The notes beneath the pieces were generated by a model, which made no database searches, had not been told where the DNA came from, and saw only the letters and a program-made list of their open reading frames with translations. Positions 10,826 through 12,271 of a DNA stretch of 64,000 nucleotides are shown here, in pieces; position 1 is the stretch's first letter, and each line of letters begins with the position of its first letter. Source of the stretch: Escherichia coli (GTDB taxonomy: Bacteria > Pseudomonadota > Gammaproteobacteria > Enterobacterales > Enterobacteriaceae); NCBI RefSeq assembly GCF_003991155.1, contig NZ_CP031293.1, one strand, 5' to 3'. The translations under genes and the position numbers were made by a program.

Positions 10826-12271
10826 CTATTTTTTAGCATTCGCATCCAGCGGAGCGGCATAACAACTGTAAGAAAAACATTCGCTGGAATGATTGGCGAT
10901 ATCTTTAAAGTTGCTTTCAGCAACCCCCTCGAACATGAGTACCGTTCTGGACAACTCTCCGTTGTCATTTATATGTGGAAAATCAAATTGTGTACTGAAT
11001 CGCCATACATCTGTCTTTTCTGGCTCGCTGTTCACAGAGATACGTCGATGGAAGACTCCTCCTGAAAACGTGCGCCAGAACAATTGTTGATCAAAATCTT
11101 GTAATATCTCAGAGTTGGATGCTATTTGATGTAGTAAACCTGTATACCGTGGACTGCCATTACGAGCAACATTATGCAAACCCTGACTAAAAGCATCAAA
11201 CAAACAATAGATGTGATCACTAGTGAAAAAAGGTCTTAATTTTTTTTGTTCTTCATCGCTGTAATCCAGGAGCATCTCATTGATTTCTTCCGGTGAGAAT
11301 TTTAAGACAAAATTATCCTCAGGATTTGTTTCTTTCTTGTTTTTTTCACTATTCTTCTCCTCAATGGTCTTCGCATTTTGTTTCGCAATTTTTTCCTCAG
11401 TTTTTTTCGCAATTTTTTCCGCAATTTTTTCCCGAGTTTTTGATTTTAGACTAACACCATCGATGTCAACCGGTGTTGTTTTCAGATCTCTCTGCGCGTC
11501 TTTCAAATTTGTCTTATAGAGATCAGGCACTTTATCGGCAGATAAGTATCCGGATGAAGAAATCTGGTGTGTACGCATGGGGGGCTGTTCACAAAGCATC
11601 GAGGCTATATCGTCTTTAAACTCTTTTACATTAAAGTTATTGGCATTAACCTTCCCTGTTATAAACCCCGCATCGGCAATTTTCTTCTCTAATTGTTTTG
11701 TACGTTTAGAATAATAAGCGTTGTTATCATAAAACTTTTCAAGAAGGGCCCACTCCTCAAGTTGCCTTATGTGATTTTTCAACTGTTGATGATCTATTTT
11801 ATATTCATGTGTACTAGAATCATTTTGGTTGCAAGAGTTACAGATTTTTAAGCATAATTTTCCATCAGATTTATCATCTATGGTATCAGTGAAAATATAG
11901 GACACTTCAATATTCTGCCCGTTCTTATCAGTCATCTCATATGACCATTGCCCCGTTCGTTTCGCATTCTTAATGAGTTCGATGGACTCTGCAGGACAAC
12001 CATGAAGAATGGGCAGAATTTTATCAGGATGCTTAATGAGTAAAATTATTATATTTACAATGTTTGAAAAGAAATCTTTGCTATTTTTTATTTCATCGAT
12101 TTTTTCCGCTGAAATGTTTACTAAATTTTCATTTCCGGAAATGAAAAGCAATTTGCCATGGGGGCTTTTTTTAAATTGTTCTTCTGTTTTAGAAAAAACA
12201 TTCTCTTTAAAAGGTGGCAACTCAGTACCAGTAATAAACGGTTTTAATAAATTCGAATTTGAAATTGTCAT
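10826..12271 (-). CDS. Uncharacterised 481-aa protein on an AT-rich insert between acpH and malZ; central Lys/Glu-rich repeat; no family recognised
   Basis: Long ORF with ATG at 12271 and a GGAG ribosome-binding site about 8 nt upstream. AT-rich codon usage unlike its neighbours. No signal peptide or obvious transmembrane segment. I recall acpH and malZ as adjacent in K-12. Confidence 0.7.
   Translation of the reverse strand: MTISNSNLLKPFITGTELPPFKENVFSKTEEQFKKSPHGKLLFISGNENLVNISAEKIDEIKNSKDFFSNIVNIIILLIKHPDKILPILHGCPAESIELIKNAKRTGQWSYEMTDKNGQNIEVSYIFTDTIDDKSDGKLCLKICNSCNQNDSSTHEYKIDHQQLKNHIRQLEEWALLEKFYDNNAYYSKRTKQLEKKIADAGFITGKVNANNFNVKEFKDDIASMLCEQPPMRTHQISSSGYLSADKVPDLYKTNLKDAQRDLKTTPVDIDGVSLKSKTREKIAEKIAKKTEEKIAKQNAKTIEEKNSEKNKKETNPEDNFVLKFSPEEINEMLLDYSDEEQKKLRPFFTSDHIYCLFDAFSQGLHNVARNGSPRYTGLLHQIASNSEILQDFDQQLFWRTFSGGVFHRRISVNSEPEKTDVWRFSTQFDFPHINDNGELSRTVLMFEGVAESNFKDIANHSSECFSYSCYAAPLDANAKK
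11370..11435. repeat. In-frame tandem repeat (12-nt unit, cgcaattttttcc-like, about 4-5 copies) inside the 481-aa ORF
   Basis: tcgcattttgtt / tcgcaattttttcc / tcagtttttttcgcaattttttcc / gcaattttttcc, encoding EKIAEKIAKKTEEKIAKQNAK on the minus strand. Confidence 0.7.

Follow-up and report, generated by a model that had tools for sequence, protein, structure and literature searches.

Lineage-paced copy number in an in-frame 12-nt repeat that probably encodes a helical spacer in an Escherichia coli orphan protein

The closest described analogue of the locus reported here is the intragenic repeat of tolA, in which 13 imperfect units of 15/18 bp encode a Lys/Ala-rich part of domain II, the alpha-helical connection between two other domains (PMC3477136). 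Among 234 isolates this repeat ranges from 8 to 16 copies (Zhou, Michiels & Aertsen 2012, PMC3477136), and its contractions are RecA-dependent and occur at frequencies of up to 6.9e-5 (PMC3477136). Our subject is a 12-nt tandem array inside a 481-aa open reading frame (ORF) on the minus strand, at 10826-12271 of a 64,000-nt stretch of Escherichia coli DNA (contig NZ_CP031293.1), which is referred to throughout as the window. Both repeats are imperfect, tandem and in frame, and both encode a Lys-rich connecting segment that is alpha-helical in tolA and predicted to be so here; both are polymorphic in copy number within E. coli, at 8-16 copies in tolA and 7-14 units in the gene encoding the 481-aa protein (hereafter the orphan gene), and in either case the changes are presumed to arise by slippage or recombination. 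They differ in their units, which are 12 nt long and encode A-E/K-K-I in the orphan array, as opposed to 15/18 bp and Lys/Ala in tolA, and in that tolA encodes a characterised envelope protein whose repeat has a measured contraction rate, whereas the orphan array is known here from sequence alone. A second point of comparison is offered by the multiple-locus variable-number tandem repeat analysis (MLVA) loci that lie inside ORFs of E. coli O157:H7, which likewise consist of short intragenic tandem units with a copy number that varies by strain.

Tandem Repeats Finder delimited a core array of 5.1 copies at 11372-11432 (minus strand), with 81% matches, no indels and a score of 80, overlapped by rows with periods of 24 and 36 nt and scores of up to 109; this is the sole array within the 64-kb window to score at least 50. 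On the plus strand the unit is CGCAATTTTTTC; in coding sense it is GCGGAAAAAATT, read as GCG GAA AAA ATT and translated as AEKI, while the plus-strand sequence at 11370-11441 is ttcgcattttgtttcgcaattttttcctcagtttttttcgcaattttttccgcaattttttcccgagttttt. The array lies in frame within the ORF, such that each 12-nt unit equals four codons, and unit-by-unit translation in coding sense gives CGG GAA AAA ATT, GCG GAA AAA ATT, GCG AAA AAA ACT, GAG GAA AAA ATT and GCG AAA CAA AAT, with more units after these. An earlier note on this DNA had proposed a 12-nt in-frame repeat of Lys/Glu type in this ORF, and in this it was right, both as to the real coding frame and as to the tetrapeptides, which are A-E/K-K-I units; the unit it spelled out ran to 13 letters, one more than the actual CGCAATTTTTTC, and the span it gave, 11370-11435, captures the core array but falls short of the full degenerate array. 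The latter, delimited by homologue alignment and linker catalogues, occupies 11327-11446 (minus strand; residues 276-315) and comprises the 10 units KSKT REKI AEKI AKKT EEKI AKQN AKTI EEKN SEKN KKET, with the Lys/Glu-rich consensus A-[E/K]-[E/K]-[I/T/N].

The periodicity was assessed by shuffling. Self-identity of the array at a lag of 12 nt is 39/48 positions, a value matched by none of 2000 codon shuffles of the whole ORF and by none of 5000 shuffles restricted to the codons of the Lys/Glu-rich linker. As no shuffle reaches the observed periodicity, the 12-nt period is not a by-product of composition. Perfect periodicity is confined to 11408-11432 (minus strand), where two exact copies of CGCAATTTTTTC stand side by side with one further base; a third exact copy lies at 11384-11395. 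A 79-aa antisense ORF across the array (11280..11519, plus strand, TTG start) was considered and rejected, being a Phe/Ser-rich shadow of the Lys/Glu codons that is interrupted by stops in a divergent allele described below (L004). No Rfam match at E<=1 was obtained within 10000-13000.

Copy number is polymorphic among homologues. Homologous genes of 1386, 1434, 1446, 1458, 1470 and 1494 nt were recovered, and the differences in length all map to the array and are all multiples of 12 nt. Carrier counts and sampling, here and below, refer to a set of 1125 complete carrier genomes, from which 60 were drawn as a systematic sample and searched with a 271-nt query spanning the array. The 271-nt length class of the window accounted for 29 of them, with a further 18 genomes longer by 12 nt, eight longer by 24 nt and one shorter by 12 nt; frameshifted alleles were found in two, and a non-repetitive allele in another two. 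Across 156 distinct full-length protein sequences, the linker between the GVSL and NPED motifs measures 28, 32, 36, 40, 44, 48, 52 or 56 aa, eight classes that correspond to 7-14 tetrapeptide units, with 10 in the window allele. The copy-number check among homologues, which the earlier note had set beforehand as a test, therefore found that unit number varies, and not that it is identical everywhere.

Pairs of closely related alleles reveal the form that these changes take. The window and L010 differ at 4 nt in 1314 flank nt, and L010 is without one exact GCGGAAAAAATT unit from the pair at 11408-11432. A second homologue, L002, equals the window plus 12 nt (GAAAATGCGGAA), and as it is longer by that amount, the GAGGAAAAAATT unit of the window is a hybrid, formed from two units of L002. 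L001 in turn differs from L002 by 5 nt and a perfect duplication of 36 nt, that is, of three units. At the protein level, sequences with identical 431-aa flanks carry unequal linkers of 44/48, 48/52, 44/48/52 and, in the O157 type, 32/40 aa. Since these proteins are identical in their flanks, unit gain and loss is recurrent, and it can outpace amino-acid substitution in the remaining protein. Slippage is a plausible mechanism, which matches the junction sequences. At the other extreme stands an allele typified by strain 23CRST027 (L004 301-1686), present in about 36 of the 1125 carriers, which encodes a protein of 84% amino-acid identity whose linker holds a single ADII unit, is otherwise non-repetitive and is 20 aa shorter; the array may here be in its unexpanded state.

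The tempo of this variation is slow. When a 149-nt query that took in most of the O157-type array was searched, 309 complete genomes matched at an identity of at least 99%, every match spanning 150 nt, and all 17 O157-type genomes in the systematic sample had the same array length; one rare O157-type protein variant (P0164) has two units fewer. Breakage of draft assemblies at the repeat, as a possible sign of heterogeneous reads, was considered and rejected, in that partial proteins start or end at scattered residues (47-201, 109-156, 340-389) and not at the array. Over the time scales of clones, then, the array does not appear to be hypermutable. In this it parts company with the MLVA loci, which vary within O157 and do so between close isolates, whereas the orphan array, so nearly identical across the O157-type genomes, is far less mutable. 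The notion that slipped-strand gain or loss of units would stay in frame accordingly holds as regards the strict 12-nt steps and junctions that fit slippage, but not as regards a rapid tempo of the contingency type.

The A-rich codons of the array bring a second kind of change. A homopolymer census located A7 runs at gene nt 100-106, at 11401-11407 (minus strand; gene nt 865-871, a plus-strand T7 inside the AKKT unit of the array) and at 11340-11346 (minus strand; gene nt 926-932), in the SEKN unit of the degenerate 3' tail of the array, the last being a recurrent frameshift site. No homopolymer in the gene is longer than the A8 run (T8 on the plus strand) at 11240-11247 (gene nt 1025-1032), in the C-terminal half; it showed no reliable natural frameshift, and the sole change there was in ESDR8, whose assembly has several differences in homopolymers. 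At gene nt 926-932, the O145 strain RM12367-C1 has A8 in place of A7, and the identical 151-nt variant occurs in 25 complete genomes, 20 of which are labelled O145. Because the genomes with this variant come from several laboratories and sequencing eras, it is a real inherited mutation, and this frameshift in the A7 run accounts for the pseudogene annotation that the gene bears across O145:H28. The fixed A7-to-A8 change in O145:H28 looks like inactivation.

Contraction of the same run to A6 gives the truncated, 322-aa O157-type protein of DEC4C (P0156), which was found on 14 draft contigs and in none of the 309 complete O157-type genomes. An A6 at this site also occurs in strain 19KM1776, and in ET201 two AKKT units have A6; each is a singleton among complete genomes and a possible sequencing error, and the 50-kb neighbourhood in ET201 is otherwise almost without frameshift annotations. 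The O145-type genomes comprise 25 in the OFF state (A8) and one in the ON state, RM12275-C1, which has A7 and an intact ORF and stands one base (A7 vs A8) from RM12367-C1; the O157-type complete genomes are ON in 309 of 309 cases. Over 50 kb, RM12275-C1 and its near-twin RM8995-C1 differ by no single-nucleotide polymorphisms (SNPs) and by five homopolymer indels, so that homopolymer lengths in this assembly series are not reliable to the single base, and on these data RM12275-C1 is not credible as a natural revertant, homopolymer errors being frequent in the series. Three of the five indels break core genes in RM8995-C1 (L016), where proC (2560-3368), mak (10174-11081) and araJ (11224-12407) are annotated as frameshifted by single-base homopolymer deletions relative to RM12275-C1, and these broken genes are probably assembly errors. 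Overall the data support A7 runs as mutational weak points at which the protein was inactivated or truncated in some lineages, and do not support a reversible switch. The earlier note had raised frameshift-type on/off switching at the T-runs of the array: frameshift alleles do exist at A7 (T7) runs, and that of ET201 falls inside the array, but the main A7-to-A8 case at 11340-11346 lies outside the span then given, and reversibility is not demonstrated by these data.

Sequence and profile searches with the 481-aa protein gave no Pfam, NCBIfam, PHROG, PADLOC or PDB match. HMMER over 1.84 billion cluster representatives returned one full-length 50%-identity cluster, the protein's own, with its fragments; besides this cluster there was one weak match (E 1e-6), between residues ~102-158 and the PKD repeats of a 947-aa protein (P0139), and a PKD or Ig-like domain at these residues was rejected, as the isolated segment had no Pfam match even at E<=10. 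A degenerate DNA pattern for the conserved C-terminal peptide had no match in 100,044 species-representative genomes. Judging from these searches, the protein is an orphan restricted to Escherichia/Shigella. The literature searched yielded nothing on this gene, nor any record of the array as a typing locus.

In an alignment of homologues, residues 1-275 and ~316-481 form conserved flanks, and gaps are confined to the array. The full-length AlphaFold2 model, built on 16 near-identical sequences, has a mean predicted local distance difference test (pLDDT) score of 42.7; the only part modelled with confidence is a helix, residues 277-305, which is the repeat (pLDDT 71-83), the remainder of the model being below 50. 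Over 41 residues the repeat segment holds 13 opposite-charge pairs at i/i+3 or i/i+4, has a hydrophobic periodicity of ~90° and includes Ala and Ile in each unit. The predicted segment recalls the ER/K single alpha-helix (SAH) domains, being likewise a Glu/Lys-rich helix and a candidate length-defined spacer between two regions; relative to pure ER/K, however, it is only 54% charged, has Ala and Ile/Thr/Asn in every unit and shows an amphipathic 4-residue periodicity. Of the length-variable linker between two domains that had been envisaged from the window, the linker stands, at 28-56 aa in 12-nt steps between conserved regions, whereas the portrayal of the flanks as independently folding domains finds no support.

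Taken together, we consider it likely that the array is an imperfect, in-frame 12-nt minisatellite encoding a Lys/Glu-rich, probably helical spacer in an Escherichia-specific orphan, with units gained and lost at the pace of lineages. On this reading the repeat would most likely be an alpha-helical spacer that connects two conserved parts of the protein, one N-terminal (~275 aa) and one C-terminal (~165 aa), and each unit would add about 6 Å if fully helical. Units would occasionally be added or removed, either by slippage during replication or by unequal recombination, involving single units of 12 nt or triple units of 36 nt, and this would give rise to E. coli lineages with 7 to 14 of them, length changes building up over lineage divergence and not within clones. 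Such changes in linker length may be neutral or tolerated. The A7 runs, arising from AAA/GAA codons, would be ordinary slippage-prone sites, at which frameshifts have truncated the protein in some lineages.

Several points weigh against this reading. The helix call derives from a low-confidence AlphaFold2 model and from composition alone, and nothing indicates that the two flanks fold as independent domains, the C-terminal part reaching a pLDDT of 48.6 when modelled alone. Pairwise dN/dS of the flanks between alleles (the window and L001-L010) spans 0.17-1.38 and is mostly about 0.35-0.9, far above values typical of E. coli core genes, a sign that selection on the orphan protein is relaxed or diversifying; if the gene is only weakly constrained as a consequence, then the claim that linker length matters is weakened. 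The L004-type allele implies either that the expanded helix is dispensable, or that this allele works differently. Finally, recombination between alleles, and not always de novo slippage, could lie partly behind the copy-number pattern.

The setting of the gene is that of a small insertion. The ORF at 10826-12271 (minus strand, ATG start) appears in the ORF list and as an annotated coding sequence in at least 1125 complete genomes, and is the homologue of ECs_0454 of O157:H7 Sakai. It is carried by 1127 of 5426 complete E. coli genomes and missing from about 79%, is always chromosomal, and is always annotated as 'hypothetical protein'. A GGAG Shine-Dalgarno (SD)-like motif at 12279-12282 (minus strand) stands 7 nt upstream of the ATG at 12271. 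The neighbouring genes are queA, acpH and malZ, and the composition profile and the K-12 alignment define a low-GC, single-gene islet of ~1.66 kb at 10799-12456, with 33-38% GC against ~53% in the flanks, which is absent from K-12. In K-12 the stop codons of the convergent malZ and acpH lie 4 nt apart, and the islet is inserted exactly between them; neither a mobility gene nor an obvious flanking repeat was noticed at 10799-12456. A nested inverted repeat at 12378-12423, CAGCCCTGACA ... TGTCAGGGCTG, with an inner GCAGC/GCTGC pair, closely follows the malZ stop, on the upstream side of the orphan ORF, and could be a malZ terminator brought by the islet. In the O55:H7 genome USDA5905 (H40, NZ_CP039837.1), the match to the orphan gene is limited to its final 334 nt, at 4175834-4176167 and adjoining malZ, which suggests that a deletion has removed three-quarters of the gene from its 5' end there, and the repeat with them. 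Another single-gene islet, espY3, encoding a type III secretion effector, was observed between pgpA and yajO in O145 genomes (38876-40438 of L015, RM12275-C1, outside the window), ~13 kb from the orphan gene.

Among the alternatives, the gene might be a decaying or functionless remnant of horizontal acquisition, in which case the repeat would be neutral low-complexity DNA of drifting length. The flank dN/dS of about 0.35-1.0 is in keeping with such a fate, as are the lack of homologues outside Escherichia/Shigella, the absence of the gene from most complete E. coli genomes, and its loss in various states, namely the frameshift throughout the O145:H28 clone and in certain O157 drafts and the partial deletion in the O55:H7 genome. 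A remnant would sit uneasily, however, with the openness of the 1.4-kb frame, which at ~35% GC is free of stop codons across alleles that differ by up to ~100 flank nt and is intact in most carriers. Nor would it readily account for the conservation of the SD motif and the ATG, for an M1 and N-terminus that are invariant in the alignment, or for the long invariant stretches of protein in both flanks. We regard decay as unlikely to be the explanation of this locus.

That the array serves as a contingency locus, in which high-frequency slipped-strand changes in unit number or in A/T runs provide bet-hedging within clones, we consider distinctly improbable. Copy number does differ among flank-identical alleles, frameshifts recur at one A7 run in at least three allele backgrounds, and RM12275-C1 and its frameshifted O145 relatives differ only by A7 vs A8. 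Truncating frameshifts that arise as independent events at one run are likewise a feature of the poly-G and poly-A contingency loci of Neisseria, Haemophilus and Campylobacter. By contrast with those loci, the tract in the orphan gene is just 7 nt long, OFF is fixed in one clone and ON in another, and reversal is not reliably attested; phase-variable genes typically have tracts longer than A7. The units themselves are imperfect, with 81% match and only two exact adjacent copies, so that the array offers no long perfect tract and the longest runs in or near it are A7. Further, the complete O157-type genomes share one array, with no A6 variant among the 309, the 25 O145-type genomes with A8 are all in one OFF state, and the lone ON genome belongs to an error-prone assembly series, as seen over 50 kb of RM8995-C1, where four other homopolymer indels were present and SNPs were absent.

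More speculatively, the orphan may be a fast-evolving interaction protein, for example secreted or effector-like, in which the spacer would act as an adjustable ruler under diversifying selection, while an in-frame A_AAA_AAC site with an SD-like element upstream, described next, would also give a truncated isoform by -1 frameshifting, the form fixed genetically in O145:H28. The gene forms a single-gene low-GC islet ~13 kb from the effector islet of espY3. We think this combined reading very unlikely to be correct.

The recurrent A7 run at 11340-11346 also forms, in frame, a slippery heptamer A_AAA_AAC (zero-frame codons AAA AAC), with a GAGGAG SD-like element 10-11 nt upstream (11340-11362, minus strand), a spacing that resembles the arrangement in dnaX. 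In the -1 frame a stop follows after 8 codons, and the resulting tail, KKQERNKS*, is that of the O145 A8 allele. That this is a programmed -1 site of the dnaX/IS1 type, yielding a truncated isoform (the N-terminal part plus the helix) beside the full-length protein, which O145 A8 would then hard-wire, is scarcely credible, for while the frame of the heptamer, the dnaX-like spacing, the shared tail and the clustering of natural frameshift alleles here and not at the longer A8 run at 11240-11247 all fit, no downstream stimulatory structure was found in the following 85 nt, which fold no better than shuffles (z = -0.02), and runs of AAA/GAA/GAG codons yield such motifs by chance in any Lys/Glu-rich repeat.

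The reading of the array as a probable, lineage-paced helical spacer places it as a further example of a known phenomenon, the intragenic in-frame repeat polymorphism of the tolA type, and opens no new mechanism. What is documented is a coding tandem repeat that changes the length of a protein in exact 4-residue steps across one bacterial species, in an uncharacterised gene present in roughly one in five complete E. coli genomes, O157:H7 included. The array is useful as a slow lineage marker, and not as a marker of outbreak resolution. Its main value hinges on the role of the orphan protein, and would rise if spacer length or the truncated form mattered; once that role is learned, the length variants, the L004-type allele and the natural truncations would be ready-made probes of structure and function.

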